Shown here piece by piece: positions 9,672 through 64,000 of a stretch of 64,000 nucleotides of DNA (the stretch's first letter is position 1; each line of letters starts with the position of its first letter). Origin of the DNA: Bacilli bacterium (GTDB lineage: Bacteria; Bacillota_I; Bacilli_A; RF39; UBA660); contig JAFQID010000026.1 of NCBI GenBank assembly GCA_017397685.1, positions 153 through 64,152 of the forward strand, given 5' to 3'. The notes beneath the pieces are model-generated. The model made no database searches and was not told where the DNA came from. It saw nothing but the letters and a program-made list of their open reading frames with translations. A program made the position numbers and the translations under genes.

Positions 9672-9682
9672 GAGATAAGAAT

Positions 9683-10693: not shown

Positions 10694-10792
10694 AAAGAAA
10701 GAACTGCGTAATTCTTTCTACTAAAGATTATATCAAAAGTGGAAAGAAAAATCAATTTTAGGGGGTTAAAAATACTATATAAAGGAGCAAGA

Positions 10793-13552: not shown

Positions 13553-14009
13553 AAAGTTAATGCAAGAAGTGATTCCTGCATTAATGAGTCAAAAGAAAGA
13601 TAAAGTTTACGAATTAGAAATAAAAGTTAAGCGAGAAAAAAGAAAGTTAAATCAAAATGATAAGTTTTACAAGTTCCAAAATGAACTTGCAGAAGTTTTA
13701 GGAACATCAAATGAAGAATTGCACTTTGAACTTTTAAAAAGATATAGTCCTGTGATACTTGCTACACTTCCTAGTTCAGTTAATCCTAGAGGTTACTTTA
13801 AATACTATGAAGAATATAAACGAGGAATAGCTAAAGGAAATGAGTTTATAAGTTACAAAGTTTATAAACCTAGTTCAGAAATGGATACCAAAGAGTTTGC
13901 GAGACTTCTTACAGGATTACTTGATGAATGTAGAGAAGTAGGGATAGAAACTATGAGCAAAGAAGAATTAGAAAGTCTTTTAAGGAGTGCTAATGAAATA
14001 TCACAATAA
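13530..14009 (+). CDS. NinB/Orf-family recombination mediator
   Basis: KREKRKLNQNDKFYKF and SSEMDTKEFARLLTGLLDECREVGIE parallel lambda Orf (ERNRSLDQNRKLWAC; TSRMRVGEFAELLELIQAFGTERGVK). Confidence 0.6.
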   Translation: MKLTGKIEKLMQEVIPALMSQKKDKVYELEIKVKREKRKLNQNDKFYKFQNELAEVLGTSNEELHFELLKRYSPVILATLPSSVNPRGYFKYYEEYKRGIAKGNEFISYKVYKPSSEMDTKEFARLLTGLLDECREVGIETMSKEELESLLRSANEISQ

Positions 14010-22879: not shown

Positions 22880-23252
22880 AGAAGCATTTGGAGCAGAATA
22901 TGATGATGATGCGATAGATAGTAACGCAAGTACATTATTTAATTCTACAAAGATACAACAAAGGTATAAAGAAATTATTAACAAACTAGAAGAAGAAACA
23001 ATTATGACGGCGAAACAAAGAATGAAGTGGTTGTCTGATGTTATAAATGGTAATATCAAAGAAAAAACAGCTATATTAAAAACTGATGCTGATGGTAATA
23101 GTAAATTGGTTGAACAAGAGTTTCCATCAAAACTAGATACTAAAATAAAAGCGTTAGATACTCTTAATAAAATGGACGGAGAATATATTACTAAAATAGA
23201 AGGGGAAATAGGAGTAACAACTATAAGAGTAAATATAGAAGATGAAGAATGA
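22806..23252 (+). CDS. terS: terminase small subunit
   Basis: 148 aa. MSLTPKQERFIQNIVSGMSQRQAYKEAFG is the typical Terminase_2-type N-terminal HTH. Confidence 0.8.
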   Translation: MSLTPKQERFIQNIVSGMSQRQAYKEAFGAEYDDDAIDSNASTLFNSTKIQQRYKEIINKLEEETIMTAKQRMKWLSDVINGNIKEKTAILKTDADGNSKLVEQEFPSKLDTKIKALDTLNKMDGEYITKIEGEIGVTTIRVNIEDEE

Positions 23253-34286: not shown

Positions 34287-37200
34287 ATGAGTTCAATACG
34301 GAAAAAACTAGGGTTACCTGAATTAGAAGAAAATGATTCTTCACGCATTAGGAAGAACTTCAACTTGCAACCTTTAAAAGAAAAAAGTAATGAAAAAATT
34401 ACAACTTTAGAAAGAATATTTAAATCGAAAAATACTATTGATGAACCTGAAATAAATAGCAATTTAGAGACTTTAGAAAGTTTAAAAAAACGAAAAGAAC
34501 AAATATTACAAGAATTGCCGAAACATAAAAAAGAAAACAAAGATTTATGGTGGAGTGAAGGCAGAAGTTTTTTAGGAAACATAGGTAATGCTTTGTACAA
34601 CTTAATAGACCCAAAATATGAAGAAAAAAAATATATAGAAGATGAACACTATTATGCTTTAGAAAAAGAATTGAACGAAATAAATAACCAAATTGATAAT
34701 TATAATGTTAATAACAAAAATTATTCGTCAGGTTTCATTGGAGGAGTAGAAAAAGCAAATGATACTTTCGTAGGAAATATAAGGACTGCTACAAAAGGTA
34801 TAGAGAGTACAACAAAAAAGATTTTGGGTCAAACTCCTAGTAAAGAAATGGTTGATTTAAGCTTAGAAGAAAAATTAGCACAAAAAGCTAAAAATGAGTC
34901 AACTGGAGTTGGAAGTGTTGCTTTAGATGTGTGGGGCGGAATTGCAAGAATGGTTCCGCAAATGGCTATAGGCAATCCAACAGGTTCAACAATAATGGGA
35001 TTTGCAAATTATGGCGGTGGTGCTTATAATGAGGCAATTAACGATGGTTATACTGATGAACAAGCTACAAAATATGGATTAGCTATAGGAACTACCGAAA
35101 TGGCTATGACTAAGGTTTTAGGTAGTTTTAGTAATATATATGGAAAGAATAAATTAGGACAAGCTTCTCAAAAAATAATTGATAAGTTCATACCTAAGTT
35201 AATTTCTAATAAACAAATACGAAATATACTATCTCAAATGATTAGCGAAGGTGGAGAAGAGTTTGTTCAAGAATATGTTGAGAACATTGTTAAAGATACA
35301 TTACTTGACGAAAAAGGTTTATTAAAATCTTCTTGGAAAAATATTACTAACGAAGAAAATCTATCAAATGCATTATACTCAGGATTTATTGGTAGTTTAA
35401 CAGGTGGAATAATGTCTGCACCTACTGAAGTAAGTAAATATAATTATGAAAAAAATACAGGAAGAAATGCAGAAACTGGATTATCTATAAACGAACAAAA
35501 AGTATTTGATACAGAAGTGAAAAATAGAATTGATGAACTTCAAAAAAATGGTGAAAAACTATCTAAAAAACAAATAACCGAGATAGAAAATCAAGTTGAA
35601 AGTGATTTGAAAAGAGGAAATATCACACTCGATACAATAGAAAGCATATTGGGCGGAGAAAAATATAATGATTATAAAAAAATAAATGATAGAAAAGACT
35701 TTTTAGAATCAAAAATAAAAGAACTAGAGAATAAGAAAATCACAGAAACAACAGTGAAAGATAACGAAACATTACAAAATTATAGAAAAGAATTATCTGA
35801 ATTAGATATAGATAATGTTAAAAACAAATTAAGTACAGAAGTAGATAACTTAACTCAAGAAGATTATTATTTAAGAGAAAGTTATAATAACAAAACTAGA
35901 AGAAGTCAAAAATATGCTGCAGATGTAAGTAAATATGACGTTAAACAACAAGCCACTATTCAAAAAGCAATAGATAGTGGTATTTTAAATGATACAAATC
36001 AAACCCATGATTTTGTAGATTTAGTTGCAAAATTATCAGCTGATAAGGGAGTAGAGTTTGATTTTACAAATAATGAAAAACTTAAAAATAGTGAGTTTTC
36101 TATTAAAGATAAAGTTGTTAATGGATATGTTAAAGGCAATACTATAGGTTTAAATATAGACTCTAACAAAGCATTAAATAAAGTTGTAGGACATGAAATA
36201 ACACATGTACTAGAAGGTACTGATTTATATTCAGAATTACAACAAGCGGTAAAAGAATACGCAACTACAAAAGGAGAATATGATGCTCGCTTAAAAGATT
36301 TAACAGAGTTATACAAAAATATAAAAGATGCTAACATAGAAAATGAATTAACTGCCGATTTAGTTGGAGATTATATATTTACAGATACTGACTTTATAAA
36401 AAACTTATCTGCAACAAAGCCTAATTTATTTCAAAAAATATATAATGAAATAAAATATTTATATAAATTAGCAACAGCAGGAAGTAAAGAAGCAAGACAA
36501 CTAGAAAAAGTTAAAAAGACTTTTGAAGATGCTTATAAAAATAATAACCCGCAAAGTAACGAAAATACTAAATATCATATAAGTGAAACACTTTCTAATG
36601 AAATAGATCAAGTTCTTGATGGAAGTTATAATAGCAGTAATCAAGTTAAAGCAAGAAATTATACACCTAAAATATTAGTAGATAATGGTGTTACTGATTT
36701 GCCAATGCTAATGACAGCAAAGCATATAAGAACAACTGTACTTAGTGAGAATGAAGCAAGGGAAAAAGGATATATAATTAACAAAAAAGACCATTATCAC
36801 GGATTAGGTAAAGAAACATTAATGAAAGTAATAGATAGTTTAGACGCGCCTTTGGAAATATATAAACAAACTGATAAAAATTATTTAGTTATAACAGAAA
36901 TTGCCGATAAAAAAGGGAAAAAAATAATTGTACCTATAGAAGTAAATGGGAAAGGCAATTATAACAATATTTATATAGATGAGAATCAAATAAAATCTGT
37001 TTATGGTCATAAAGATTTAGGAGGCTATTTAAATTATAATAATTTTGAAAAAATTTATTCAAAAAAAAGAACTGTTTTAAATGAAGGGGTAAAATCCCAC
37101 GACATTAACAGTTCAATTTCTAATAATATACCACAAAACACTAAAAATGTCAAGGATACATCATCTACTAAATATTCTATTAAGAATAAAGAAAATAATA

Positions 37201-40200
37201 CACAAAATCTTTCTTTATCTAATAAAAATGATATAGCACCTATAAATCCTAATCTAACTTATGGAAAAGATATAAAACTACAAGTAGAAGAAGCAATAGC
37301 ACCTATAAAAGAGACAATAGATAATTTATCAAAACAAGTAGAAACTATATCACAAGATATAGCACCTGTAAAAAAAGCAGAGATTATGCAGAACACTGCA
37401 GAAGATACTGCAGAAAATGTAATAGAAAAAGAAAATACTCAAGAAAGTGCCAAACTTTTAGATTCAAGACCTTTAAAACAAAGAAAAAGTGCTTCTGAAC
37501 AAGCAAAAAAACTTTATCAAATGTTAGTGGATAAAGGTAAATATGTATCTGACCTTGCTAAAAAAACCAATAATCCTGAACTTTATGCAAAATACGATCA
37601 AATGGGTACTGCAAGAGGAACTGCTGAATATTCAATAGCAGTAGGTCAAGTTGATAATAATGGTAAAATAATAGGAAAGAGTCTTATTGATATATGGCAG
37701 CCTATTACTGAAAGCGGTAAAGAGTTTGATTTTAGTATGTATTTATTACACAAACATAATATAGATAGATATGCGCAGGGTAAACCTGTATTTGGCGAAG
37801 ATATAACAAGTGAAATATCACAAGAAGAAGTTAGTAAATATGAACAAAAAAATCCTGGGTTTATAAAGTGGTCTAAAGATATAAATACATATAACAAAAA
37901 TCTATTACAAAATATGGTTGATGCAGGTCTAACAAGTGAAGAAAGTCAGAAGTATTACAATGATACTTATTCTAATTATGTAAGAATATATAGAGATATG
38001 ACAGGAAACAATCCTATTACTATGTATAATGGAAAACTTAAAGTTAATAATCCTATAAAAACTGCTAAAGGTGGAAATCAAGATATACAACCTCTTAAAG
38101 ATAGTATGGCACAGCACACTTTAGATGTAACAAATGCTATAAGGAGAAATCAATTCGGTTTAGAGTTATACAATACTTTAGGAGAAGGTGAAAATGTAAC
38201 AGAGTATGGAGAAGATATAATAGCAAAAAACAAAGATGGTTCTTATACATTTACTGTGTTTGATAAAGGTCAACCTGTTAAATTAACTATAGATGAAGGA
38301 TTATATGAAAGTATTAAACCAACTGCGAAAGCAAATTGGGAAGATACAATAATAACAAAAGGAACAAATAAATTACTTCAATTTCAAAGAGGTTTGATTA
38401 CTGATAAAAATCCATTATTTTTAGTGAGAAACTTCTTTAAAGATTTAGGAGATGCTCCCCTTAATTCTAAATATGGTAGTAAGTTTTTTAAAAACTTTGT
38501 TAAAGCGTATAATGAAATTGCGACAAATGGAGAATATGCACAACTTTATAAAGCTATGGGTGGTTATCAACAATCATATTTTGATAACGATAAAGGTTTA
38601 AAAATGCCTTCACAAAAAGTTAGTGCTAAGTTTGTTCAAAAAATACAAAGTCTTAATCACGCTGTAGAAATGGCACCTCGACTTGCCGAGTTTATATCAT
38701 CTATTGAATCAGGGGATAGTGTACAAACAGCAATGTATAATGCTGCTGAAATTACAACAAACTTTAAAAGAGGTGGAGAAACTACAAAAAAAGTTAATAA
38801 ATATTTTTCTAATTTTCTAAATGCATCTGTTCAAGGATTTGATAAACAATTTAGAAACTTTACAGGACAAAATGGAGCAAAAGGATATATTAATTTATTA
38901 CTTAAAGCTACAGCATTTGGAATAGCTCCTTCATTATTGAATCATTTATTATTAGAAGATGATGAAGAATATGAGGAACTTCCAGATTATATAAAAGACA
39001 ACTATTATTTATTTAAAACAAATGATGAAGGAGACTTTATTAGAATACCTAAAGGAAGGGTTGTAAGTGTGTTTGGAAATGCTGCAAGAAGAACAATTGA
39101 ATATGCAAATGGAGATAAAAAAGCCTTTAAAGGTTATTTATCTAATGTAGCAACAAATGTAGCACCTAATAATCCGCTAGAAAGTAACGTTTTATCTACT
39201 TTTACTCAAGTGGCAACGAATAAGTCGTGGAATAAAAGTGATATAGTACCTCAAAGATTACAGAACTTACCTGCGGCAGAACAATTTGATGAAAAAACAG
39301 ATGAAATATCTAAGTGGATAGGTAGAACATTTAATATAAGCCCTAAAAAAGTTAATTATATATTAGATCAATATAGCGGAGTATTTGGTGATGTTTTCTT
39401 GCCTATGATGACACCACAAGCAGAACAAAATCCATTCACTAGCGCTTTTACTGTTAATAGCACTACAACAAATAAATATAGTAGTGAGTTTTATGATGTC
39501 AAAGATGAATTAACTGAAAAATCTAATTCAGTAAATGCAACTAACGAGGATATACTAAAAACAAAATATATGAACTCTGTACAAACTGAAATGAATGAAT
39601 TATACAAGGAAAAACGTGAAATACAAATGTCTAATATGACAGATGAAGAAAAACGTAAAGAAGTTAAAAAAATACAAAGTTATATCAACCAAATAGCAGA
39701 AGAAGCGTTAAATAATTATGAAAGTGTTAAAGTATATTCTAACTATAGCAAAATAGCTGATAAAGAGTTTTATATTGGGTCTGATGGAGAGTGGACAAAA
39801 GTCAAAACTGAGGATATGTACGACCTAGAAGATTTGAATATGAACGATGAAGATAAAAACAATTATTTTAAAGCTAAAAATAATATTTCTAACATTAAAA
39901 AAGATATAAGTTCGGAAGATAGAAAAAGTTTTATAATAAATGAAGTTATAAATAGCAATTTAAATGATGAACAAAAAGCCTACCTATATGATAAATACTA
40001 TGCTAGTACAGATAAATTAAATATAGTTGTTAAAAGTGGTATCGGTATGGACGAATATTTAGTTTTAGAAGCTCAGAACTTTCAAGCAGATAAATATCCA
40101 AATGGTAAAACCGTTACAGGTAGCAAAAAAAATAAAGTTTTTAATTACATCAATTCTACTAATTTGGGCTTTGAACAGAAAGTTATTTTAGCTAAAATGT

Positions 40201-40340
40201 ATTATCCATCTTATGATGAATATAACTACGATATTATAAATTATCTAAATGATAATGAAAACATTACTTATGATGATATGAAGAATATTTTAGAAACCTT
40301 AGGCTTCAAAGTTAAAGGAAACAACATAACGTGGGATTAA
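34287..40340 (+). CDS. 2017-aa virion protein: candidate ejected/polyvalent protein with an HExxH zincin motif and a MuF_C/PBECR-like module
   Basis: AGGAGG RBS. Gly-rich hydrophobic segments. VVGHEITHVLEG (HEITH at 36192-36206). HYHGLGKETLMKVIDSLDAPLEIYK...NYLVITEIADKKGKKIIVPIEVN. Confidence 0.6.
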   Translation: MSSIRKKLGLPELEENDSSRIRKNFNLQPLKEKSNEKITTLERIFKSKNTIDEPEINSNLETLESLKKRKEQILQELPKHKKENKDLWWSEGRSFLGNIGNALYNLIDPKYEEKKYIEDEHYYALEKELNEINNQIDNYNVNNKNYSSGFIGGVEKANDTFVGNIRTATKGIESTTKKILGQTPSKEMVDLSLEEKLAQKAKNESTGVGSVALDVWGGIARMVPQMAIGNPTGSTIMGFANYGGGAYNEAINDGYTDEQATKYGLAIGTTEMAMTKVLGSFSNIYGKNKLGQASQKIIDKFIPKLISNKQIRNILSQMISEGGEEFVQEYVENIVKDTLLDEKGLLKSSWKNITNEENLSNALYSGFIGSLTGGIMSAPTEVSKYNYEKNTGRNAETGLSINEQKVFDTEVKNRIDELQKNGEKLSKKQITEIENQVESDLKRGNITLDTIESILGGEKYNDYKKINDRKDFLESKIKELENKKITETTVKDNETLQNYRKELSELDIDNVKNKLSTEVDNLTQEDYYLRESYNNKTRRSQKYAADVSKYDVKQQATIQKAIDSGILNDTNQTHDFVDLVAKLSADKGVEFDFTNNEKLKNSEFSIKDKVVNGYVKGNTIGLNIDSNKALNKVVGHEITHVLEGTDLYSELQQAVKEYATTKGEYDARLKDLTELYKNIKDANIENELTADLVGDYIFTDTDFIKNLSATKPNLFQKIYNEIKYLYKLATAGSKEARQLEKVKKTFEDAYKNNNPQSNENTKYHISETLSNEIDQVLDGSYNSSNQVKARNYTPKILVDNGVTDLPMLMTAKHIRTTVLSENEAREKGYIINKKDHYHGLGKETLMKVIDSLDAPLEIYKQTDKNYLVITEIADKKGKKIIVPIEVNGKGNYNNIYIDENQIKSVYGHKDLGGYLNYNNFEKIYSKKRTVLNEGVKSHDINSSISNNIPQNTKNVKDTSSTKYSIKNKENNTQNLSLSNKNDIAPINPNLTYGKDIKLQVEEAIAPIKETIDNLSKQVETISQDIAPVKKAEIMQNTAEDTAENVIEKENTQESAKLLDSRPLKQRKSASEQAKKLYQMLVDKGKYVSDLAKKTNNPELYAKYDQMGTARGTAEYSIAVGQVDNNGKIIGKSLIDIWQPITESGKEFDFSMYLLHKHNIDRYAQGKPVFGEDITSEISQEEVSKYEQKNPGFIKWSKDINTYNKNLLQNMVDAGLTSEESQKYYNDTYSNYVRIYRDMTGNNPITMYNGKLKVNNPIKTAKGGNQDIQPLKDSMAQHTLDVTNAIRRNQFGLELYNTLGEGENVTEYGEDIIAKNKDGSYTFTVFDKGQPVKLTIDEGLYESIKPTAKANWEDTIITKGTNKLLQFQRGLITDKNPLFLVRNFFKDLGDAPLNSKYGSKFFKNFVKAYNEIATNGEYAQLYKAMGGYQQSYFDNDKGLKMPSQKVSAKFVQKIQSLNHAVEMAPRLAEFISSIESGDSVQTAMYNAAEITTNFKRGGETTKKVNKYFSNFLNASVQGFDKQFRNFTGQNGAKGYINLLLKATAFGIAPSLLNHLLLEDDEEYEELPDYIKDNYYLFKTNDEGDFIRIPKGRVVSVFGNAARRTIEYANGDKKAFKGYLSNVATNVAPNNPLESNVLSTFTQVATNKSWNKSDIVPQRLQNLPAAEQFDEKTDEISKWIGRTFNISPKKVNYILDQYSGVFGDVFLPMMTPQAEQNPFTSAFTVNSTTTNKYSSEFYDVKDELTEKSNSVNATNEDILKTKYMNSVQTEMNELYKEKREIQMSNMTDEEKRKEVKKIQSYINQIAEEALNNYESVKVYSNYSKIADKEFYIGSDGEWTKVKTEDMYDLEDLNMNDEDKNNYFKAKNNISNIKKDISSEDRKSFIINEVINSNLNDEQKAYLYDKYYASTDKLNIVVKSGIGMDEYLVLEAQNFQADKYPNGKTVTGSKKNKVFNYINSTNLGFEQKVILAKMYYPSYDEYNYDIINYLNDNENITYDDMKNILETLGFKVKGNNITWD

Positions 40341-44886: not shown

Positions 44887-45207
44887 ATGGATATAGAATT
44901 AGTAAAACAAATTATAATAGTTGCTATTGCTTCAAGTATCATAAGTACGGCAATAGTTCAAAAAGTTAAAGAACAATTAAAGAGCAAAAAATGGCTCTTT
45001 TTTGTTGGTTTGGTGGTTAGTATAGGAATAGGTATAGCTTTTGCTTCAAGTTTCTCAGAACTATCGCTATTGAGTTCAGTATGGGTAGGAATAGTGTCTT
45101 GGATAGGAGCTGATGCAATTTATAAAGCGTTTGAAGATAAGATATTTAAATCTTTTTCTAATATAGACAATGCTAAAACTATTGTAATAGAAAGAGATGA
45201 TGAATAA
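44887..45207 (+). CDS. holin (putative, 3 TM)
   Basis: 106 aa. Three hydrophobic helices and a charged C-terminus. Immediately upstream of and abutting the endolysin. Confidence 0.65.
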   Translation: MDIELVKQIIIVAIASSIISTAIVQKVKEQLKSKKWLFFVGLVVSIGIGIAFASSFSELSLLSSVWVGIVSWIGADAIYKAFEDKIFKSFSNIDNAKTIVIERDDE

Positions 45208-46055
45208 TGGCAACATATAAAGCATTAACCGAAGAAAATTGTAAGGATTTTAAAAACTTTAAATATAGTGAGTTTAAGTGTAAGTGCAAAGGAAAATATT
45301 GTAAAGGATATCCTGTACCATTTAGTTATCAATTAGCATCGCATTTGCAAAAAATACGAGATAATTTCAAAAAGCCAGTAATAATAACGAGCCCTTTAAG
45401 ATGTAAACAACATAATAAAAACTCTGGAGGAACTTCAAATTCACCACACATGAAAGGATGGGCAGTAGATTTTTATATAAATGGAGTTTCATATGATAAA
45501 TTATATTCATATGTTAAAAAACTTCCATATTACAGTTATGCTTATCGTGTAAAGAAAAATCAAAATGTGATACATTACTCGATTACTCCACCAAGTGAAA
45601 TACAGGTTGTTTCTACAGTTAAAAGAGATGAGTTTAAAAATCAGTTAAAAGTATTAGCTGATGAACTTAGAGTAAGAACTGGTGCTAGTACGAATGCATC
45701 TATTGTAGGGGTTGCGAAGAAAAATTGTATTTATAATTATTTTGAAACAAAAAAAGATAGTAAATATACATGGTATAGAATAGCCGATAAGCAATGGGTA
45801 GCAAATAATGGAAAGTATCTCACAGTGTATTCAAAAACGGAAGGAGAAGATGAAAAAGTGATAGCGGAACTTCAAAAACAAGTTCAAGAATTAACTGATA
45901 AAAATGTTTTGTTAGAAAAAACAAATCAAGAACTTCAAACTCAAATAAAAGAAAAAGAAACAAATGAATATAAAAGTATTTATAAATGTGCAGAAGATGG
46001 AGACTACAATATTAAAATTAAAATGTATAAAGATGAAGAATTATATATAAAATAA
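45207..46055 (+). CDS. endolysin: M15A-type zinc peptidase + SH3b-like domain + C-terminal coiled coil
   Basis: SPLRCKQHNKNSGGTSNSPHMKGWAVDF is the Peptidase_M15A pattern. LRVRTGASTNASIVGVAKKN...YTWYRIADKQWV is SH3b-like. ELQKQVQELTDKNVLLEKTNQELQTQIKEKE is the coiled coil. Confidence 0.8.
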   Translation: MATYKALTEENCKDFKNFKYSEFKCKCKGKYCKGYPVPFSYQLASHLQKIRDNFKKPVIITSPLRCKQHNKNSGGTSNSPHMKGWAVDFYINGVSYDKLYSYVKKLPYYSYAYRVKKNQNVIHYSITPPSEIQVVSTVKRDEFKNQLKVLADELRVRTGASTNASIVGVAKKNCIYNYFETKKDSKYTWYRIADKQWVANNGKYLTVYSKTEGEDEKVIAELQKQVQELTDKNVLLEKTNQELQTQIKEKETNEYKSIYKCAEDGDYNIKIKMYKDEELYIK

Positions 46056-53224: not shown

Positions 53225-53232
53225 GTGAAGTG

Positions 53233-53895
53233 ATGATTTATAGAAGTATTGAAGAAATGAAAGAAAAGAATAAAGACAATAGAAATGATGTTAGAAATGA
53301 ATATAATGTTTCTAGAGAAAAAGATAATAAAAAATTTAGAAGAATATTTTTCGGAGTTATTTTTTCTTTGTTATTTTTTATAGTTTTTGTGAAGATATTT
53401 TTTGGCGAGATTCTTATACCTTATGGTGTAACTTTTAATGGAAGTAAGTTATATAAAGTGTATGTTAATGATTCTCATATAACTGTAGGTTATGAAAGTA
53501 AGCATAAAATTCCAATTATTCCATTTAGTTTATTTTTACAAACTAGTGATTTTGGCAGTTATTTTGGTTCTAATTATGGTTCTAATGATGTAGAGATATA
53601 TTTAGGGGATAAGTTTGTTTTAGATGTTCAAGCTTATGAGTGTTTTGCTAAAGTGAAGGATGTTAAAAAAATGAAAGTTAAGTGTTCTTCTGATGTAAGG
53701 ATTCTTGAAGAAGTAGATGGTAATTATGATTTAGAAATTATTAAGCTTGATAAAAAAAATGTATATAAATATTCTAATGATTTTAAAAATGATATAGGTG
53801 AGTATTTTGATGAGAAGGGGCGTTATGTTGTTTATATAAATGATAGAAATAGACGTACTCATACTCAGGTATATTTTTATGTTGATGTTGTTTGA
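53233..53895 (+). CDS. single-pass membrane protein, function unknown
   Basis: One TM helix (IFFGVIFSLLFFIVFVKIFF). Beta-rich ectodomain containing VNDSHITVGY. Confidence 0.55.
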   Translation: MIYRSIEEMKEKNKDNRNDVRNEYNVSREKDNKKFRRIFFGVIFSLLFFIVFVKIFFGEILIPYGVTFNGSKLYKVYVNDSHITVGYESKHKIPIIPFSLFLQTSDFGSYFGSNYGSNDVEIYLGDKFVLDVQAYECFAKVKDVKKMKVKCSSDVRILEEVDGNYDLEIIKLDKKNVYKYSNDFKNDIGEYFDEKGRYVVYINDRNRRTHTQVYFYVDVV

Positions 53896-53933
53896 TTGTT
53901 GATAAGTTTGTGGTTATTAACAATGGAAAGGTT

Positions 53934-54446
53934 ATGATGGGAAATAAAATAAGAGATTTTTTTGATTATATTTGTAATTTTGAATATGGTTGGCAAGATA
54001 AATACGGAAATATGCATGATAGAATAGATAAAAGTTATTATGATATTTTTGTGTTTAGAAGTGTTTTTGATGTTAAAAAAAGTAATGTTGGGGTTTGCTG
54101 GGAAATAGTAGAGATTGAAAGAGAGTTTTTTAATAATAATGATATAAATCATAAAATTATATTTGTTTTATATAATGATATTGGTTATCATAGTCATACG
54201 TTTAGTGTTTATGAGTATATGGGGAAGTATTATTGGTTTGAGGCAGTACTTAAAGATTACAAGGGTATATATGAGTTTAATAGTTTAAATGAACTACTTG
54301 ATAATGTTAAAGATAATTTTAAATATATAAAACTTAGTGAAAAGTATGATAAAAATAAAATAGAGTTTTATGAATATGAAAAGCCTTTGGATATATCTTC
54401 ATGTCAAGATTTTTATGATTATTGTATGAAATCAAAAAGATTATAG
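53934..54446 (+). CDS. hypothetical protein (possible papain-like Cys/His fold; tentative)
   Basis: Start set at the MMGNKIRD ATG (the track start is TTG). GVCWEIVE...YHSHTFSVYE hints at a Cys-His pair. Confidence 0.4.
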   Translation: MMGNKIRDFFDYICNFEYGWQDKYGNMHDRIDKSYYDIFVFRSVFDVKKSNVGVCWEIVEIEREFFNNNDINHKIIFVLYNDIGYHSHTFSVYEYMGKYYWFEAVLKDYKGIYEFNSLNELLDNVKDNFKYIKLSEKYDKNKIEFYEYEKPLDISSCQDFYDYCMKSKRL

Positions 54447-54483
54447 TAGATATTTTATTTTAAATATGTTAAAATATAGTAGA

Positions 54484-54680
54484 TTTAACGGGGAAGGAAA
54501 GAGATAATATTACTTTTACAAGAGAGTTAGTGGTTGGTGAGAACTAATTAAAGGTATATTTGAAGATGGTTCTGGAGTTAAAACGCGTTACTTGCGTTAT
54601 AAGTAAGAGATGATTAAAATCATGAATTAAGGTGGTACCACGGCAAGAAGTCGTCCTTTGTTTATGGTTTTTTATTTTTA
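54484..54680 (+). promoter_or_regulatory. T-box riboswitch leader (Met specifier) controlling metG
   Basis: AGAGA box (AAGAGAGTTAGTGG). Candidate specifier GAAG-ATG-G with ATG at 54566-54568. T-box core AATTAAGGTGGTACCACGG at ~54625-54643. U-rich tract before the RBS. Confidence 0.75.
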
Positions 54681-54691: not shown

Positions 54692-56215
54692 ATGGAAAAA
54701 AAGAAATTTTATTTAACAACACCTATTTATTATCCAAGTGCGGAGTTTCATATAGGACATTGTTATACAACTATTATTGCTGATAGTATTGCAAGATATA
54801 AAAGACTATCTGGATTTGATGTGTTTTTTCAAACTGGTACTGATGAACATGGTCAAAAGATTGAAAGAAAAGCTATGGATGCGGGAGTAAGTCCTAAAGA
54901 GTATGTTGATAAGATTATTTTGAATGCTAAGGATTTATGGAAGTCTCTAGGAATATCTTATGATTATTTTATTAGAACATCTGATGAGGATCATAAAAAA
55001 AGAGTTCAAGAAATATTTAAAAAGATGTATGATAGTGGAGATATTTATAAGAGTGAGTATAAAGGTCTTTATTGTACACCATGTGAATCTTTTTGGACTG
55101 AGGCTCAACTTGTAGATGGTAAGTGTCCAGATTGTGGTAGAGATGTTGAGGAGGCACATGAGGAAGCATATTTCTTTAAACTTTCTAAATATCAAAAGAA
55201 GTTAGAAGAGTTTTATGAAGCTAATCCTAATTTTTTACTTCCATTATCTAGAAAGAATGAAATGATTAACAATTTTATTAAACCAGGACTTGATGATTTA
55301 TGTGTGTCAAGAACATCATTTACTTGGGGAATACCTGTAAGTTTTGATGAAAAACATGTTGTTTATGTTTGGGTTGATGCTTTATCAAATTATATTACTT
55401 CTCTTGGTTATCCAGAAGAAAGTGAAATGTTTAAAAAGTTTTGGCCTGCTGACTTACATTTAGTAGGTAAAGAAATTGTTAGATTTCATGCGATTATATG
55501 GCCTGCGATGCTTATGAGTCTTGGTATTGAACTTCCTAAGTGTGTGTTTGGTCATGGATGGTTAATTATTGATGGAGGTAAGATATCTAAGTCAGTAGGT
55601 AATTATAAAGATCCAAGGGAATATATTAATGAATATGGAGTAGATGCGGTTAGATATTTTGCTTTACGTGAAGTTCCTTTTGGTAATGATGGTAATTTCT
55701 CTGAGGATGCTTTGATCGCTAGAACTAATGCTGATCTTGTAAATAATCTTGGTAACCTTGTTAATAGAACTATTGCGATGGTTAATAAATATTTTGATGG
55801 AATTGTTAGTAATCCTGGGGTTAAAGAGGATGTTGATGACGCTTTAGTTGTATATGCGAATGAACTTAAAAAATTAGTTGATAATAAGATGAATAGTTAT
55901 AAAGTAAATGAAGCTCTTGAAGATATTTTTGAACTTTTAAAAAGAGCAAATAAATATATTGATGAGACTACTCCTTGGATTTTAGCTAAGGATGAAACAA
56001 AGAAAGATAGACTTGCGAGTGTATTATATAATTTACTTGAAAGTATAAGAATAGCATCTGTTTTATTAAGAGCATTTATACCTAGTACTAGTGATAAGAT
56101 ATTTAATATGCTTAATACTAGTAAAATAGATTTTGAGTCTCTTAGTTTTGGAAACTTAGAAACTGAAATTAAACTTAATGAGTCTGAAATATTATTTAAT
56201 AGAATTGAAAAATAA
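54692..56215 (+). CDS. metG: methionyl-tRNA synthetase (short form, no C-terminal tRNA-binding domain)
   Basis: Start at MEKKKFY (AGGAGG RBS). HIGH variant (EFHIGH), zinc knuckles CTPCESFW...CPDCGR, and KMSKS variant KISKS. Confidence 0.92.
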   Translation: MEKKKFYLTTPIYYPSAEFHIGHCYTTIIADSIARYKRLSGFDVFFQTGTDEHGQKIERKAMDAGVSPKEYVDKIILNAKDLWKSLGISYDYFIRTSDEDHKKRVQEIFKKMYDSGDIYKSEYKGLYCTPCESFWTEAQLVDGKCPDCGRDVEEAHEEAYFFKLSKYQKKLEEFYEANPNFLLPLSRKNEMINNFIKPGLDDLCVSRTSFTWGIPVSFDEKHVVYVWVDALSNYITSLGYPEESEMFKKFWPADLHLVGKEIVRFHAIIWPAMLMSLGIELPKCVFGHGWLIIDGGKISKSVGNYKDPREYINEYGVDAVRYFALREVPFGNDGNFSEDALIARTNADLVNNLGNLVNRTIAMVNKYFDGIVSNPGVKEDVDDALVVYANELKKLVDNKMNSYKVNEALEDIFELLKRANKYIDETTPWILAKDETKKDRLASVLYNLLESIRIASVLLRAFIPSTSDKIFNMLNTSKIDFESLSFGNLETEIKLNESEILFNRIEK

Positions 56216-56236
56216 ACACTTCGGTGTTTTTTTGTC
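56214..56236 (+). terminator. intrinsic terminator after metG
   Basis: AAACAC-ttcg-GTGTTT followed by a T run. Confidence 0.75.
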
Positions 56237-56281
56237 TTTAAAAATATAGATAATTATGATAAGATTATATTGTGATAATTT

Positions 56282-56680
56282 ATGGAATATGATAGGTTTT
56301 CTTTTAAAATTAATATAAAACAAAAAGTTGAGTATAATAAATTACTTTTAAAAGATGTTAATGATAATATTTTAGATAATTATGAAAGAATAATATATGG
56401 GGATAAGAGTGAATATGAAAAAGTTTGTTTAGAGTTGGAAACGATTTTAAGTTATTGTAAAAAAAGTGATGCTTTGATTGTTTTTTTAATTAATTATTTA
56501 TTAGATTATATTTATAAGAATAAAGAAATAGATAATAACAGTATAAACAGATTTAAACAATTAATTTGTGTATTAAATATACATTATGGTATGGATTATG
56601 GATTTTATAAAACTGTTAAATATTTAGATAATAATTCGTTGGAAATTATTATTTCAAAGATTAACAAGTATTTTTTATAA
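56282..56680 (+). CDS. hypothetical helical protein (cluster gene 1)
   Basis: 132 aa. No family recognised. Weak RBS. Confidence 0.45.
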   Translation: MEYDRFSFKINIKQKVEYNKLLLKDVNDNILDNYERIIYGDKSEYEKVCLELETILSYCKKSDALIVFLINYLLDYIYKNKEIDNNSINRFKQLICVLNIHYGMDYGFYKTVKYLDNNSLEIIISKINKYFL

Positions 56681-56702
56681 TCTTGAAGGGAGAAAAATAA
56701 AA

Positions 56703-58757
56703 ATGGAAAATTATAATAATAATGTAAATATTGAAAAATTTAAATATTTTTTAACAAGAAATATGGATTATTTAAATCTTGAAAAAACTAAAGTTGAGGA
56801 ATTTATTTTTTCTTTGAATTATTATGTTGAAAGGTTAAAAAATTTTATAGAAGATCCACAATCTATCGATGCTGATATGTTATTTGGAGATGATATGAGT
56901 TTTATTAGAGAAGAAATATCAAATTATAGTTTATCTATTGAATCTAAAATTTTCAGTAAAGCAAATTATACGAATCAAGTTGCATATGCTAAGTATTTGA
57001 TTTTTGCATTTACTAATCATATTATTCAACCATATAAGATTTGTAAACATATTATTTCTAAATGTTCTGAGGTTTTAGAAATAATTAAATATAAAGATAA
57101 TAAATTAGATTTTCCTATTGATAGTCAAGAAAAATATGATTTAATAGATGATGTAGTTAAATTTTTTTCTAGAAAAAAATTACTAGATTTAGATTTTGAT
57201 GAATTGGATTTTAAATTTAAATTTAATACTGTGCAATCTTTTATGTTAGAGTTGGCTTCTCTTGATTTAAATGCCAAAAAATATAGAGATAAATTATTTG
57301 AAGAAAAGAAGAGAAAAATTGCCAAAAGAAAAATAAGAAGAAATATTGAAAAACAAGTTATAGAAAAAGACCAAGATAAAAGTGAAATACAAATAATTGA
57401 TTTAGAAAAAGAAATTGAATATTTTAAAAATAAACTAGGTGATATTTTAATTAAATATAAAAATACAATTGATCATGATTATTCTGAAGATATTGATGAT
57501 GGATTTGAAATCATAAAAAATGAAAGTAGTGAAGAAAAAGATTATTTTTTATCTTCAAAGTTAGATGTATGTTTAGGAATTGTTATCAAAGATATTGAGT
57601 TTATGTTATCTAATAACTTTGAATTAACAAATGAATATTATTATAAATTGAAAAAGGCTTTTGATACGTGTGAGGTTCTTCTTCCTATTAAGGATTTTGA
57701 TATTGAGCATAATGACGAATTAAATAAAGCACAAGAATCGATTAATAATTTTTATAATTTAATAAGTGAAGAAGAAAGAAATATTCTTATTTCTATTTAT
57801 GAACATATATCTAATATTAATTTTGCATCTAGTGAAAATATGAATGATGAAAATACTAATATTTCATTTAATTCTGACGATATTATTGATGATGAAAATA
57901 ATATATATTCTTCTAATGAACAGTATAGGAAACAAGAAATGTTGATTAAAGATTTTATAAGTAATGTAAGTGGCATTAACACAAAGATTGATTATAATTT
58001 TTATAGAATGTATGAGTGTATTGTAAATAGTGAAAAATATTTAAAAGAGTATGATAGTGAAGTAGATTTAAATAATAGAAAATATTGTTTAAAAGAAATA
58101 AATCTTTTGATAAAGAATTATTCTGATTTACTAGAGATTAAACAAATTATTGAAACTAGAAATAATGTTAGAAATGATATTTATTATTTATATTTAGATG
58201 ATGGTGTCAGTAGTATGATTGAATATATATTGGATGATAAAAAACATATAAATATTGATAGAAATTTTAGCATTGTTAAAGGTCTTGTTAATAAGATTAG
58301 GAATTTAAGTGATGTAGATATTCATCGTATATCTGGGGAAGTTCTTGGTTCTTATAATAATGGAAGTGTTAGAAGAAATAGAGATGGTAATTATAGGATA
58401 ACTTTTATACATATAAATAGATTGGGAAAATTAAATATTGAATTAGAAAGAAGTTGTTATATTGTTATAGCCTGTGGGTTTAAAAAAGCGGATAAGACAA
58501 TATATGATTTTACTAAGAGTAGAAAAGTAACAAACGCACTTGAAGATTTATATATATATATAAAAAGAGAGAATGATAAAATAGATGCAGAGAATTTAAC
58601 TGAAGAAGAAAAGAAATCAAAAATCAAAAGTTTTATATCTGATATAGTTACTGCTAATAATAAAAAATTCGAAGAAGATTTTGAAACGGAGATAGAACAT
58701 CGTTTGAGAGGTGAGGATAATGACTGGGATGAAGAAACAGTTAATAGACAAATTTAG
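56703..58757 (+). CDS. 684-aa protein: long helical N-terminal region + C-terminal RelE/ParE-like domain (cluster gene 2)
   Basis: C-terminal ~aa 492-603: DIYYLYLDD...IEYILDD...IVKGLVNKIRNLSD...GEVLGSYNNGSVRRNRDGNYRITFIHINR...CYIVIACGFKKADKTIY follows the RelE/ParE layout (R.R.G.YRiiy.i ... vvil.ig.R...Y). Confidence 0.55.
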   Translation: MENYNNNVNIEKFKYFLTRNMDYLNLEKTKVEEFIFSLNYYVERLKNFIEDPQSIDADMLFGDDMSFIREEISNYSLSIESKIFSKANYTNQVAYAKYLIFAFTNHIIQPYKICKHIISKCSEVLEIIKYKDNKLDFPIDSQEKYDLIDDVVKFFSRKKLLDLDFDELDFKFKFNTVQSFMLELASLDLNAKKYRDKLFEEKKRKIAKRKIRRNIEKQVIEKDQDKSEIQIIDLEKEIEYFKNKLGDILIKYKNTIDHDYSEDIDDGFEIIKNESSEEKDYFLSSKLDVCLGIVIKDIEFMLSNNFELTNEYYYKLKKAFDTCEVLLPIKDFDIEHNDELNKAQESINNFYNLISEEERNILISIYEHISNINFASSENMNDENTNISFNSDDIIDDENNIYSSNEQYRKQEMLIKDFISNVSGINTKIDYNFYRMYECIVNSEKYLKEYDSEVDLNNRKYCLKEINLLIKNYSDLLEIKQIIETRNNVRNDIYYLYLDDGVSSMIEYILDDKKHINIDRNFSIVKGLVNKIRNLSDVDIHRISGEVLGSYNNGSVRRNRDGNYRITFIHINRLGKLNIELERSCYIVIACGFKKADKTIYDFTKSRKVTNALEDLYIYIKRENDKIDAENLTEEEKKSKIKSFISDIVTANNKKFEEDFETEIEHRLRGEDNDWDEETVNRQI

Positions 58758-60441
58758 ATTAATGCTTGCAGCTAATAGTAAATATTATGATATGTTTGAT
58801 GATTTAAATTATTTGTTATATAGTATAAAAGATGCTCCTTTTAATTTGATTGAAATAGAGAAAAAATATTTGCCTTATGTAGAGAATAATTTAAGTGATG
58901 GTGCAAAAGAGTTTGTTAAAGACACAAAAAGTGTACTTGATGTTTTTGAGAAAAGCAAATACTATGATTTGCCAAAAGAGGTTGTAAATAATATAGTTCA
59001 AAACGTTTATTTTTCTGAAGTAATGGAAAAACTTGATAGATTTTTATTACATTGCAGTCAAAGAGAAAAAATAGAAGAAGTTATTACTTATTTAGAAAAT
59101 TTAAAAGAAAATGAATATTTAGAAATTGAAAAAATTAAAATGATTTTAATTAATGATTTAAAATTTGACTGTAGAGTAAAAAGTGATATATTTTTATTAA
59201 TGCCTAAATATAATATATTTGTTAGTAAAAATATTGAGAATATGTATGATAAAGAGATGTTAGAGATAGATATTATATCCAATGAAGAACTTATAGATAT
59301 TTTTAAAGAATATGGTTATAATTTTTTGTTAGTTTCGGAGAAGATGAGGGAATATGCAAAAATATATGGTGATTTAGATAATATTCGTTATATGTTTGAA
59401 TTTTTTAAGGACAATAATGTCAAATTCAGTGAAAATGATGAGAAGTATTTATACATATTATTTAAGTCAGATGAAGTATGTATTAACAATTTAAAAAGCA
59501 TTTGTGATGATTATGGATTTGAATTAAATAGCTTGCTTAATAGAACACCTTCTGTATTCTGGGATAGTATTAAAAGAGATAAAGTTAATAGAAAACCTGG
59601 ACCTCCGAGACCTGGTGGTGATGAAGTTTCATTATCTGGTTCTAATGGGGATTTTAAAAAAAATGTTGAACTTATTAAATCTTTAGGATATCCTGTTAAA
59701 GAATCTTATGATAAGTGTTCATCTGTGTTTGTTTGTTCTTATAGGAAATTAAAAGGCAATGTAGATGATTTGATTAGATATGGAATTGATCCAAACAATT
59801 TTTCTAAAATTATAAAATTGACTGGATTAACAAGTAGTAATATATTAAATACTATAGATAGGTTTATAGAACTAGGAGAACTTGACTATTTGTTTGATAA
59901 TACTTCTAGGTTAGCTTTGGATTGTAATCATGTTATATTTCATAGACTTTATAAGGTTAAAAAGCATAATATGGAAAATCCAACGAACCCAATTGACTAT
60001 AAGAATATCTCTAAAACGGGTTCTATTAGTTATAAATCTTTTATTACTTCTTATCATGATACAACTTTAAAAATAAATAATGATAATAAAAATTTAGTAA
60101 ATAATTTTGTTGAACCTTGTGTTTTATTTGATGAAGATAAAGAAAAGGTTATAAGAGCTCTTGATGAAGGAAAAAATGATGACAAAGATCCTTTAGAAAT
60201 GTCAGATATTAAGTTTTTAGAAGAAAACTATAAAGTTAATGATTTAGTTTATAGTGTTTGTGGATTTACTTTTTCTAGGTTAAAAGTTCTAAGGTTATAT
60301 TCTTCTCTTGAAAATGTAGATATTGATTTAGATGATTTATTATTTTACTGTTTAACATATAATTCTATGTTAACTAAGGAAGATGTGGAAGTTATCAAAA
60401 ATGAAATTAATTTAAAAAGAAAAGGGGATTTATTATTATGA
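58720..60441 (+). CDS. ~570-aa protein with mTERF-like helical repeats (cluster gene 3)
   Basis: Start uncertain (GTG 58711, ATG 58720 or ATG 58729). Overlaps gene 2 by ~40 nt. Repeats such as NVELIKSLGYPVKESYDKCSSVF / NVDDLIRYGIDPNNFSKIIKLTGL / IDRFIELGELDYLFDNTSRL. Confidence 0.55.
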   Translation: MTGMKKQLIDKFRLMLAANSKYYDMFDDLNYLLYSIKDAPFNLIEIEKKYLPYVENNLSDGAKEFVKDTKSVLDVFEKSKYYDLPKEVVNNIVQNVYFSEVMEKLDRFLLHCSQREKIEEVITYLENLKENEYLEIEKIKMILINDLKFDCRVKSDIFLLMPKYNIFVSKNIENMYDKEMLEIDIISNEELIDIFKEYGYNFLLVSEKMREYAKIYGDLDNIRYMFEFFKDNNVKFSENDEKYLYILFKSDEVCINNLKSICDDYGFELNSLLNRTPSVFWDSIKRDKVNRKPGPPRPGGDEVSLSGSNGDFKKNVELIKSLGYPVKESYDKCSSVFVCSYRKLKGNVDDLIRYGIDPNNFSKIIKLTGLTSSNILNTIDRFIELGELDYLFDNTSRLALDCNHVIFHRLYKVKKHNMENPTNPIDYKNISKTGSISYKSFITSYHDTTLKINNDNKNLVNNFVEPCVLFDEDKEKVIRALDEGKNDDKDPLEMSDIKFLEENYKVNDLVYSVCGFTFSRLKVLRLYSSLENVDIDLDDLLFYCLTYNSMLTKEDVEVIKNEINLKRKGDLLL

Positions 60442-60731
60442 ATTTTTTAGATTTAGATAGTAATAGTCTATATGTTTATGATAAAATCAAAGAAATTTAT
60501 GGGGATGGATTTTTAAGTGATTTATATTTAAATAAGAGTAATATTAAAAGTGTTATTTCTTATTTAAAAAGTTTGGGTATTAAATGTATTAATGAATTAT
60601 TAATTTATAAAATAGATGTATTTTTTAAAGATGTTGATTTTTTAGAATGTGAGATTAAAAAATTCGATGTTAGTGAGTTTGTCAATTTAGTTAATGATGA
60701 TTATTTTATGATTGATAATTATTTATTTTAA
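60438..60731 (+). CDS. 97-aa protein with one or two mTERF-like repeat units (cluster gene 4)
   Basis: ATGA overlap with gene 3. IKSVISYLKSLGIKCINELLIYKIDVFF. Confidence 0.5.
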   Translation: MNFLDLDSNSLYVYDKIKEIYGDGFLSDLYLNKSNIKSVISYLKSLGIKCINELLIYKIDVFFKDVDFLECEIKKFDVSEFVNLVNDDYFMIDNYLF

Positions 60732-60793
60732 GTTTATTAAGAAAGTGGGATTTATTCTTGCTTTTTTTGTTTTTTATAGTTTATAATTGATGT

Positions 60794-62058: not shown

Positions 62059-64000
62059 ATGGAAGAAAGATCTGAGTTTAGTAATGAAAATAATTTAAAA
62101 TATGATTCTTTTGAGGAAATTAAGAAAGATGTTAATGTTGATAATTATAAGGAAGAGGAAAGTAATAAGAAAAGAAGAAGAATTATTTTGCTTTTGTTAA
62201 TTTTGTTATTATTGTTGTTTATTTTTTTAGGTTATAAGTGTACTGGTGGTTGTTTGTTTTGTAATAATAAAATTACTATGAATATAGATATTGATGATGA
62301 TGGAGAGCCTGAGCTAAATTTAGATTTTGGTAGTGGTGAGTGTAAGGTAAATTGTACAAATGATAATAAAAAGCCTCAAATAAATGTTGATTTTGGTGAG
62401 GACAATATTCCGCATTTTAATATTGATGATGATGGAGATGGAAAAGCTGATAAGAATCTAATTAATCAAGATATTAATGGTGATGGAGTTTGTGATTTAA
62501 ACTGTGATACAGATGATGATGGATGGCCTGATGAGAATATCGATTTAAATGGTGATGGGAAATGCGATTTAAACTGTGATACTGATGGAAATGGAAGTTG
62601 TGATTTGAATTGTGATTTGAATGATGATGGAAAACCTGATACTAATATAGATTTTAATAATGATAAAGAACCACATTTTAATATTGATGATGATGGAGAT
62701 GGAAAGATAGAAAAAAATCCAACAAATCAAGATAAAGATAATGACGAAGTTTGCGATTTAAACTGTGATACTGATGATGATGGATGGCCTGATGAGAATA
62801 TTGATTTAGATGGCGATGGAAAATGCGATATTAATTGTGCTGGAAAATGTGATGTGAATTGTGACTTAGATGGCGATGGAAAGTGTGATCTAAATTGTGA
62901 TATGAATGGCGATGGAAAATGCGATTTAAATTGTGATTTGGATGGAGATGGAAAGCCTGATACTAATATTGATTATAATAATGATAAAGATCCACATTTT
63001 AATATTGATGATGATGGAGATGGAAAGGTAGATAAAAATCCAACAAATCAAGATAAAGATAAGGATGGAGTTTGCGATTTAAACTGCGATACTGATGATG
63101 ATGGATGGCCTGATGAGAATATTGATTTAGATGGGGATGGGAAATGCGATTTAAACTGTGATACTGATGGAAATGGAAGTTGTGATTTGAATTGTGATTT
63201 GAATGATGATGGAAAACCTGATACTAATATTGATTATAATGACGATAAAGAGCCACATTTTAATATTGATGATGATGGAGATGGTAAGATAGAAGAGAAT
63301 CCAACAAATCAAGATAAAAATAAAGATGGAGTATGCGATTTAAACTGTGATACTGATGATGATGGATGGCCTGATGAGAATATCGATTTAAATGGTGATG
63401 GGAAATGCGATTTAAACTGTGATACTGATGGTAATGGAAAGTGTGATTTGAATTGCGATTTAAATGATGATGGAAAACCTGATACTAATATTGATTATAA
63501 CGACGATAAAGAACCACATTTTAATATTGATGATGATGGAGATGGAAAGGTAGATGAAAATCCGACAAATCAAGATAAAAATAAAGATGGAGTATGCGAT
63601 TTAAATTGTGATACTAATGATGATGGATGGCCTGATAAAAATATCGATTTTAATGCTGATGGTGTATGTGATCAAAATTGTGATATCGATGTTTATGAAG
63701 GCGAAGAGTATGTGCTTAAGTTTTCAGATGGTTTAGATATGAATCAGCCTAATATTACTCCTGGATGGAAAGGTAGTAAAAATTTTACGATTACTAATAA
63801 AACTGATGAGGCTCAAACATTTAAGTTAGAATGGATAAATGTTACTAATACGTTTACTGAAGTTAATAATTTATATTATAAAATTACTAGGGATAATAAT
63901 GTTGTTAAAGATTCTCTTAGAACTCCGTATAATTCTGCGGTAATTCTTGATAATATTACTATACCTGCTTATAAAAGTTATGTTTATACTTTTGAGTTTG
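62059..64000 (+). CDS. large membrane-anchored surface protein with tandem thrombospondin-type-3-like Asp/Cys repeats (partial, runs off the window)
   Basis: Not in the ORF track because it is open-ended. AGAGGAG RBS and ATG at 62059. TM helix IILLLLILLLLLFIFL. Repeated DxDGDGKCDLNCD modules. A beta-rich domain begins ~63690. Confidence 0.75.
   Translation, partial: MEERSEFSNENNLKYDSFEEIKKDVNVDNYKEEESNKKRRRIILLLLILLLLLFIFLGYKCTGGCLFCNNKITMNIDIDDDGEPELNLDFGSGECKVNCTNDNKKPQINVDFGEDNIPHFNIDDDGDGKADKNLINQDINGDGVCDLNCDTDDDGWPDENIDLNGDGKCDLNCDTDGNGSCDLNCDLNDDGKPDTNIDFNNDKEPHFNIDDDGDGKIEKNPTNQDKDNDEVCDLNCDTDDDGWPDENIDLDGDGKCDINCAGKCDVNCDLDGDGKCDLNCDMNGDGKCDLNCDLDGDGKPDTNIDYNNDKDPHFNIDDDGDGKVDKNPTNQDKDKDGVCDLNCDTDDDGWPDENIDLDGDGKCDLNCDTDGNGSCDLNCDLNDDGKPDTNIDYNDDKEPHFNIDDDGDGKIEENPTNQDKNKDGVCDLNCDTDDDGWPDENIDLNGDGKCDLNCDTDGNGKCDLNCDLNDDGKPDTNIDYNDDKEPHFNIDDDGDGKVDENPTNQDKNKDGVCDLNCDTNDDGWPDKNIDFNADGVCDQNCDIDVYEGEEYVLKFSDGLDMNQPNITPGWKGSKNFTITNKTDEAQTFKLEWINVTNTFTEVNNLYYKITRDNNVVKDSLRTPYNSAVILDNITIPAYKSYVYTFEF
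62290..63700 (+). repeat. in-frame tandem DNA repeats, period 261 bp (one 321-bp unit), ~5 copies
   Basis: The marker CATTTTAATATTGATGATGATGGAGATGG recurs at 62413, 62674, 62995, 63256 and 63517. Units are near-identical at the nucleotide level. Confidence 0.9.

Follow-up and report, generated by a model that had tools for sequence, protein, structure and literature searches.

A rare four-gene operon encoding a probable RelE/ParE-like domain at a variable site next to metG in uncultured Bacilli: a candidate conflict module

The question raised by this locus is what four tightly packed genes of no recognised family may be doing between metG and the gene of a membrane-anchored DUF6273 protein. 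The genes, called here g1 to g4, lie in a 64,000-nucleotide (nt) stretch of DNA from an uncultured Bacilli bacterium (contig JAFQID010000026.1, positions 153 to 64,152). This stretch is referred to as the window, and coordinates are those of the window unless another locus or contig, designated by an L number, is named. On its 5′ side the cluster is preceded by a T-box leader and metG, and on its 3′ side it is followed by the DUF6273 protein gene. An initial annotation, made from the letters of the sequence, had described the cluster as a co-translated unit reminiscent of toxin-containing conflict or defence systems. The answer tentatively favoured here is that the operon, which is carried on the chromosome and restricted to its lineage, is a module of the toxin-antitoxin or abortive-infection-like kind, the effector being a multidomain protein of the RelE family. 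An accessory function of the conflict type is favoured over a housekeeping complex because the operon is patchy in distribution, rare and cassette-like, and a defence role is plausible.

The connection with toxins is found in g2. The AlphaFold2 model of this protein, built from 16 sequences, is helical over residues 8–487 and continues into a basic domain (residues 489–606) with the predicted order beta-alpha-alpha-alpha-beta-beta-beta-alpha, a topology that fits the compact beta-alpha-alpha-beta-beta-beta(-alpha) arrangement of RelE. With the whole model of 684 amino acids (aa) as the Foldseek query, the sole specific match in the PDB was Mycobacterium tuberculosis RelE1 (9g12_B; probability 0.90, target-normalised template modelling score 0.62, root-mean-square deviation 4.3, E 0.64), and the remaining PDB matches were generic helical bundles. 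Nothing was found in the PDB at E ≤ 1e-3, and the comparison with viral structures gave only non-specific helical matches. When the domain family was compared by hhalign with Escherichia coli RelE (sequence checked against 4V7K), the score was 20.5 (P 0.004, probability 8%, 28 columns) versus 10.5 ± 2.0 for shuffles, none of 200 reaching the observed value. In this alignment the motif RxGxYR(I/V)xY...CY(I/V)VxxGxK of the g2 family is placed against LRSSGYRLVYQ...VVFVISVGKR of RelE, and the same register was obtained with the Thermus RelE-like protein 2khe, whose score was reached by 4 of 200 shuffles.

The roles of K54, R61, R81 and Y87 of RelE are established from RelE-ribosome structures. 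In the hhalign alignment R565 of g2 pairs with R61 and K594 with R81; by extension, R558 corresponds to K54 and Y601 to Y87. Across the g2 family R557, R565, G592 and K594 are invariant, R558 and Y586 nearly invariant, and Y601 mostly conserved. No RelE/ParE/HigB/YoeB/Gp49-type family of Pfam or NCBIfam matched full-length g2, its C-terminal domain or 15 family members at E values up to 10. A RelE/ParE-like fold is considered probable for residues 489–606, at the level of fold and motif only, and the domain may possibly be catalytically active. The initial annotation had placed such a domain at the end of g2: its presence is tentatively upheld, on the strength of the predicted topology, the RelE1 match and the in-register motif, while its terminal position had to be given up since a 78-aa tail follows. 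A 138-aa protein (P0013) considered as a stand-alone RelE-like relative was rejected: it lies on a contig of only 1.8 kb, is preceded by an in-frame stop and represents a long g2 in fragmentary or pseudogene form; therefore it provides no evidence for monodomain relatives.

The tail of g2 contains a confidently predicted helical hairpin (residues 607–669) with a conserved (I/L)SxEEK...NNxxF motif, and then a low-confidence end. The block means of the predicted local distance difference test (pLDDT) are 90–94 over residues 601–660, 62 for 661–670 and below 50 from 669. In the helical region before the domain there is a very basic long helix (residues 174–232, isoelectric point (pI) 9.85), located after a conserved NxLNLxALKxRD motif. 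Conservation in g2 is highest in the C-terminal domain and the N-terminal region is variable, an arrangement like that of effector-plus-sensor proteins.

The cassette-like behaviour of the operon is seen most directly by comparison with the contig of a near-identical strain (L004). Identity between the two DNAs is 99.2% until metG ends (window 56216) and 96.5% once position 60749 is reached, while between these points the L004 DNA is only 65–68% identical or unalignable. The L004 allele encodes a g2 of 37% identity and a 200-aa version of g3 of 52% identity, and it has neither g1 nor g4. This sharp allele replacement between near-identical flanks constitutes a clean natural case of cassette exchange at a chromosomal hotspot. 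The metG-to-DUF6273 site is a hotspot where content varies: 14 related species have the slot empty or otherwise filled, and it is empty in four related species. In seven to eight species it holds what we take to be a TraX-like membrane protein, a PadR-like regulator and a 435–456-aa protein, with a reduced version in L016. In L015 the slot (6774–13951 of that locus) contains a gene for a 1554-aa EssC-like ATPase with FHA and FtsK/SpoIIIE domains (confirmed with Pfam), accompanied by small open reading frames (ORFs), of which six, helical, are presumably WXG100-like and one is presumably YukD-like; one of the small helical ORFs was tested and gave a weak Pfam WXG100 match (E 0.0018), below the gathering score. 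In none of 80 related species was a g1–g4 homologue found at 10 kb or less from metG. Compared with the sister strain L107, g1–g4 differ by 31 nt and 16 aa changes, versus 10 nt and 0 aa changes in metG, from which it can be roughly estimated that g1–g4 are under moderate purifying selection, weaker than that on metG.

The rarity of the family is marked in the databases searched. An exhaustive HMMER profile search of 1.84 billion representative proteins yielded 16 g2 relatives, word-indexed searches of 5.8 billion proteins gave two relatives for g2 and four for g3, and a further homologue search with a seven-sequence g3 profile brought nothing new. Where homologues of g1–g4 occur in independent loci, they keep the same order and the same tight spacing (hidden Markov model (HMM) E values 1e-18 to 1e-200), with gene overlaps or 1–3-nt gaps throughout; in all, the operon and its conserved overlaps are found in at least eight independent loci. 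The explanation that these are spurious ORFs or pseudogenes was rejected, as they are intact and conserved across divergent loci.

Outside the window, the full operon recurs in three genomic contexts, and reduced versions are seen in five more. The arrangement g1-g2-g3-g4 of the window is found again in L102, L103 and L104, and g2-g3-g4 in L085 and L094 (L091 being partial). A shortened g3 consisting of the N-terminal module appears as g1-g2-g3N in L092 (203 aa) and as g2-g3N in L004 and L105 (194–200 aa). In L095–L101, g3 and g4 follow a helical protein of 260–270 aa without the RelE-like domain. Between the congeneric species L095 and L096 this last cluster is syntenic, with identities of 41%, 57% and 65% versus 65–96% in the flanks. 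Finally, in L089 g3 and g4 are preceded by a 493-aa g2-like protein with a degenerate C-terminal motif and by a 72-aa ORF. This small ORF (4582–4800 of L089, an ftsA-ftsZ-linked locus) lies between the 493-aa protein and g3; it matches no family and is possibly antitoxin-like.

Concerning the partners of g2, homologues of g1 are located directly 5′ of g2 homologues in L092, L102, L103 and L104 (HMM E 1e-18 to 1e-55), and g1 is absent from L004, L085 and L094. The N-terminal module of g3 forms a separate gene of 194–203 aa after g2 in L004, L092 and L105. The C-terminal part of g3 and g4 always occur or vanish together, every long g3 being followed by a g4 homologue of 93–100 aa. Besides the named motifs of Table 1, the conserved positions of g3 are mostly aromatic, Gly or Leu, and no enzyme-like motif was apparent in the g3 alignments. 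A weak internal repeat relates residues 186–275 of g3 to residues 305–362 (hhalign P 4e-4). The AlphaFold2 model of g3 was poor (pLDDT 52.7, built from four sequences), and the Foldseek search with that model was empty. Both g3 and g4 had been called mTERF-like, and they share with mTERF proteins, whose fold is a left-handed solenoid of three-helix repeats of roughly 30 aa, their helical character, recurring '...(Y/L)G(Y/I)...' motifs and the weak internal repeat. Unlike mTERF proteins, g3 does not match Pfam PF02536, the PDB profile searches returned no mTERF, and only one of six g4 homologues reached E 0.022; accordingly, they are not filed here as mTERF.

The layout of the operon agrees with that initially described. 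The ORF list contains four co-directional intact ORFs at 56282–60731, with the expected sizes and positions, g3 being 573 aa long when counted from the ATG at 58720. This start is preceded by GAGGTGAGG and is the one chosen by public gene callers. The g2/g3 overlap, put at about 40 nt, measures 38 nt, and the ATGA shared by g3 and g4 was confirmed. Shine-Dalgarno sequences are good for g2 and for g4 (AAGGGG), and none is obvious for g1. The operon is bounded at both ends, since a hairpin with a U-run occurs after metG and another after g4; both were missed by a generic terminator scan because their stems are GC-poor. The proposed promoter TTGTCT-17-TATGAT (56232–56260) does exist as a match in 9 of 12 positions, but it carries no weight because such matches barely exceed shuffles in this AT-rich DNA (62 found versus 49 ± 6). 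The four proteins are each acidic overall, and no hydrophobic segment of transmembrane strength was found in them (maximum KD19 1.1). The description as a co-translated four-gene unit devoid of recognised family, transmembrane or signal features was borne out.

Table 1. Coordinates of the g1–g4 operon, its parts and boundaries, and of selected prophage genes in the window
Feature	Position	Strand	Remarks
Left boundary: metG terminator-like hairpin and U-run	56207–56240	+	core 56214–56229, −6.6 kcal/mol, z −2.1 (RNA folding)
g1	56282–56680	+	132-aa helical protein, accessory member of the operon
g2	56703–58757	+	684 aa; Shine-Dalgarno AAGGGAG; AlphaFold2 mean pLDDT 79
g2, probable RelE/ParE-like domain	58167–58520	+	residues 489–606, basic (pI 9.1)
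g2, C-terminal tail	58521–58757	+	residues 607–684, acidic overall (pI 4.65), family-conserved
g3	58720–60441	+	573 aa from ATG 58720; ORF opens at GTG 58711 (576 aa)
g3, N-terminal module	58720–59319	+	about 200 aa; partner adjoining nearly every RelE-domain-bearing g2 examined
g3, C-terminal helical part	59320–60441	+	conserved FKxYGY, DRFIELGE, SRLK..R and TYNS motifs (alignments)
g4	60438–60731	+	97-aa acidic helical protein; start overlaps g3 stop (ATGA)
Right boundary: terminator-like hairpin and U-run	60739–60775	+	hairpin 60739–60767, −9.4 kcal/mol, z −3.2 (RNA folding)
Prophage tyrosine integrase	6839–7954	−	
Prophage large terminase subunit	23242–24714		
Prophage ORF of tape-measure size	34287–40340		2017 aa
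Prophage endolysin	45207–46055		

Family searches were negative with the four proteins. None of them matched a family in Pfam, NCBIfam, PHROGs or PADLOC, scans with the family of the g2 C-terminal domain and with g4 homologues were negative too, and no defence model was matched in the scan with PADLOC-DB v2, where the best E values (0.016 and 0.037) belonged to unrelated models. No antitoxin family matched g1, g3 or g4, and no partner gene recognisable as ribbon-helix-helix (RHH), helix-turn-helix (HTH) or Phd/YefM was seen. Sequence and profile searches of the PDB with g2, g3, g4 and the C-terminal domain of g2 returned nothing specific. Profile-profile tests showed no mutual relationship among the N-terminal parts of g2 and g3, g1, g4 and the 260-aa protein of L095/L096. 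A match of g4 to phrog_4140 (E 1e-4) was dropped, as it was common to none of the other five homologues. Literature searches on DUF7763, and on mTERF together with toxin-antitoxin in prokaryotes, returned nothing.

The favoured reading can be put in mechanistic terms as follows. The region 56217–60748 would be a self-contained, chromosomally carried accessory operon acting as a conflict module. Its effector would be g2, the basic RelE-family domain (489–606) probably being an RNA-cleaving or a ribosome- or RNA-binding toxin domain. This domain would be kept inactive by the acidic tail (607–684), a possible neutralising element in cis, and/or by the N-terminal g3 module, which is translationally coupled to g2 and is the one partner that accompanies nearly every g2 with the domain. 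Together, the C-terminal part of g3 and the g4 protein would probably make up a single helical unit with a regulatory or sensing role, for instance by nucleic-acid binding, and g1 would be an optional accessory. The structure of the operon, its conservation and rarity, its cassette-like replacement and the resemblance to RelE in fold and motif were observed here; toxicity, the direction of neutralisation and any trigger such as phage are inferred. A more elaborate version, in which the operon would be a hitherto undescribed multi-protein immune or conflict system of gut Bacilli, with a tethered, autoinhibited RelE-type RNase (g2) licensed by helical-repeat partners (g3/g4) sensing nucleic acid or protein of an invader, and with highly divergent alleles maintained in the population via recombination at the metG hotspot, is regarded as rather unlikely.

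Several observations speak against a toxin-antitoxin or abortive-infection-like module. The E value of the RelE1 match is 0.64 and the hhalign probability 8%, none of g1 to g4 is matched by a profile of RelE/ParE toxins, antitoxins or defence proteins, and the RelE-like domain, flanked on either side by large elements of an 82-kDa protein, would fit poorly in the ribosomal A site. In L095–L101 the g3-g4 pair occurs after a 260–270-aa protein devoid of the RelE-like domain, in an arrangement that is syntenic between two species; therefore g3 and g4 cannot serve solely as an antitoxin, and the syntenic inheritance of the pair in one genus argues against a simple mobile defence cassette. The neighbours of the operon elsewhere are mostly housekeeping genes (ftsA-ftsZ, a penicillin-binding protein (PBP) gene, MurJ, FemAB, leuS and rpsO), no cluster homologues were found in phage records, plasmids or IMG/VR contigs, and no integrase or transposase directly flanks the cassette. 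Altogether, no link of the cluster to phages, plasmids, mobile elements, defence islands or known defence systems turned up. Much of this can be claimed by a different explanation, which we consider unlikely: a non-toxic, fast-evolving, lineage-specific cytoplasmic complex for RNA, ribosome or cell-cycle biology, with the RelE-fold domain co-opted for RNA or ribosome binding and the partners acting as helical scaffolds. Its division and envelope neighbours recur, with ftsA-ftsZ in L089, the PBP in L085/L086, MraY and FtsW in the L086 version, and MurJ and FemAB in L103/L104, and so do neighbours from translation and RNA metabolism (metG, leuS, rpsO, nusA-infB-rbfA-truB and an RNase R-like gene with an RNB domain). 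To these may be added the neighbours in L095–L101, which we take to be gpr and a SpoIIP-like gene, and others that are presumably rnc-like and RNase J-like. The synteny in two congeneric species, the lack of adjoining mobile-element genes and of phage or plasmid copies, and the mostly helical nature of the proteins, with no enzyme motifs beyond the RelE-like domain, point in the same direction. Nevertheless, in genomes as small as these, chance alone would be expected to place housekeeping genes next to the operon, and some of the contexts, several in number, depend on one another. A cellular complex is also difficult to reconcile with a patchy and rare distribution (16 representatives, and nothing at the metG site in 80 related species), with the swap of the cassette in one species for a 37%-identical, differently composed allele, and with invariant residues that are the equivalents of the RelE catalytic set.

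The layout of the operon could also suggest a type VIIb-secreted (T7SSb), LXG-like polymorphic toxin locus, in which the small helical g1 would serve as partner for targeting, g2 would be the secreted toxin, its nuclease domain having the RelE fold, and immunity would be conferred by g3 and g4. BECR/RelE-fold toxin domains are known in polymorphic toxins and, as in LXG loci, a small helical protein comes first here, then a large helical one that carries a toxin-like domain, and then downstream partners; the alleles are hypervariable at the locus, and the EssC-like ATPase in the metG slot of L015 indicates that T7SSb-type genes occur in the group. However, neither g1 nor g2 matches an LXG or WXG100 profile in Pfam, the toxin-like domain of g2 is not C-terminal, and the conservation pattern is the reverse of that of polymorphic toxins, with a conserved C-terminus and a variable N-terminus. 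Besides, no type VII secretion genes were noticed beside the cassette, either in the window or in the gene tables shown for other loci, and immunity proteins of 570–610 aa would be atypical. This alternative is considered highly improbable.

Taken as a module with a multidomain RelE-family effector, the operon has its closest described counterparts among the multidomain or fused RelE/ParE (BECR-fold) toxins and the multi-gene operons containing them, including the ptuXYZ type, catalogued by Gerdes (2025; PMC11980606). In that work many multidomain BECR proteins were left unanalysed, as they had no identifiable antitoxin or their families were too small. The common features are a larger protein into which a RelE-type domain is built, an operon of several closely packed genes and a proposed conflict or defence role; the segment after the toxin domain of g2, if neutralising in cis, would be reminiscent of the toxin-antitoxin fusions described there. 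Unlike the catalogued proteins, which were found via Pfam BECR families, g2 matches none of these families, and its helical N-terminal extension of about 490 residues is without counterpart. The partners of g2, a 573-aa helical protein and a 97-aa protein, include no ATPase, nuclease or recognised antitoxin. The similarity to RelBE and HigBA lies in the core motif of the toxin domain, in its topology as predicted, in the basic and Tyr residues aligned with K54, R61, R81 and Y87 of RelE, in the overlapping genes, and in a toxin-first order that resembles higBA. The differences are the size of g2 (684 aa versus about 95), the number of genes (four versus two), the lack of an RHH, HTH or Phd-type antitoxin, and the lack of homology at the profile level.

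If g2 were an active RelE-type toxin, the RelE/ParE superfamily would be extended by an 80-kDa helical architecture in which the toxin domain is internal and the helical partners are large, an architecture wholly missed by current profiles, and uncultured small-genome gut Bacilli would carry private conflict systems. If the operon were not a toxin system, it would encode a lineage-specific complex of narrower interest. The family is unannotated and confined to uncultured organisms, and the key homology is weak.

Concerning public records, DNA identical to this region is present in ENA and Logan metagenome assemblies, one of the scaffolds being 140 kb long. The four genes are covered by locus tags IJB83_02795 to IJB83_02810, and MBQ4263157 (g1), MBQ4263158 (g2) and MBQ4263160 (g4) are labelled by NCBI as 'hypothetical protein' of a 'Bacilli bacterium' metagenome-assembled genome (MAG). 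The nearest metG among the returned GTDB species representatives has just 80% protein identity, and the hosts of those nearest metG genes are uncultured gut 'Bacilli', 'Tenericutes' and 'Clostridium sp. CAG' MAGs.

Some other features of the window were recorded. The T-box leader directly 5′ of metG extends over 54482–54661 (Rfam RF00230, 97 bits). It is overlapped by the longest metG ORF (GTG 54632), and the true start of metG is probably the ATG at 54692. Just 5′ of the T-box there are two overlapping ORFs (221 and 184 aa; 53230–54446) without a Pfam match, homologues of which occupy other positions in a few related species only (L016, L018, L023). A prophage of about 39 kb (6694–46055) is integrated beside tRNA-His (6694–6769), and ends some 10 kb before the cluster, on its upstream side. 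The first 315 positions of the window comprise the 3′ end of a 23S rRNA gene and a 5S rRNA gene. Towards its other end it encodes a 673-aa membrane-anchored protein (62059–64000, continuing into L001 to position 17378) with Asp-rich repeats of the 'DxDxDGxxD' type and a calcium-binding look; long tandem DNA repeats, 82–91% identical to each other, are found inside this gene (62410–63685). Past the 3′ end of the window (L001 17479–22055) there is an IS3-type transposase pair (HTH_21/rve), and then genes for an N6_N4 methyltransferase and a ResIII helicase; the latter two resemble type III restriction-modification genes. These genes lie about 6–8 kb downstream of the cluster.

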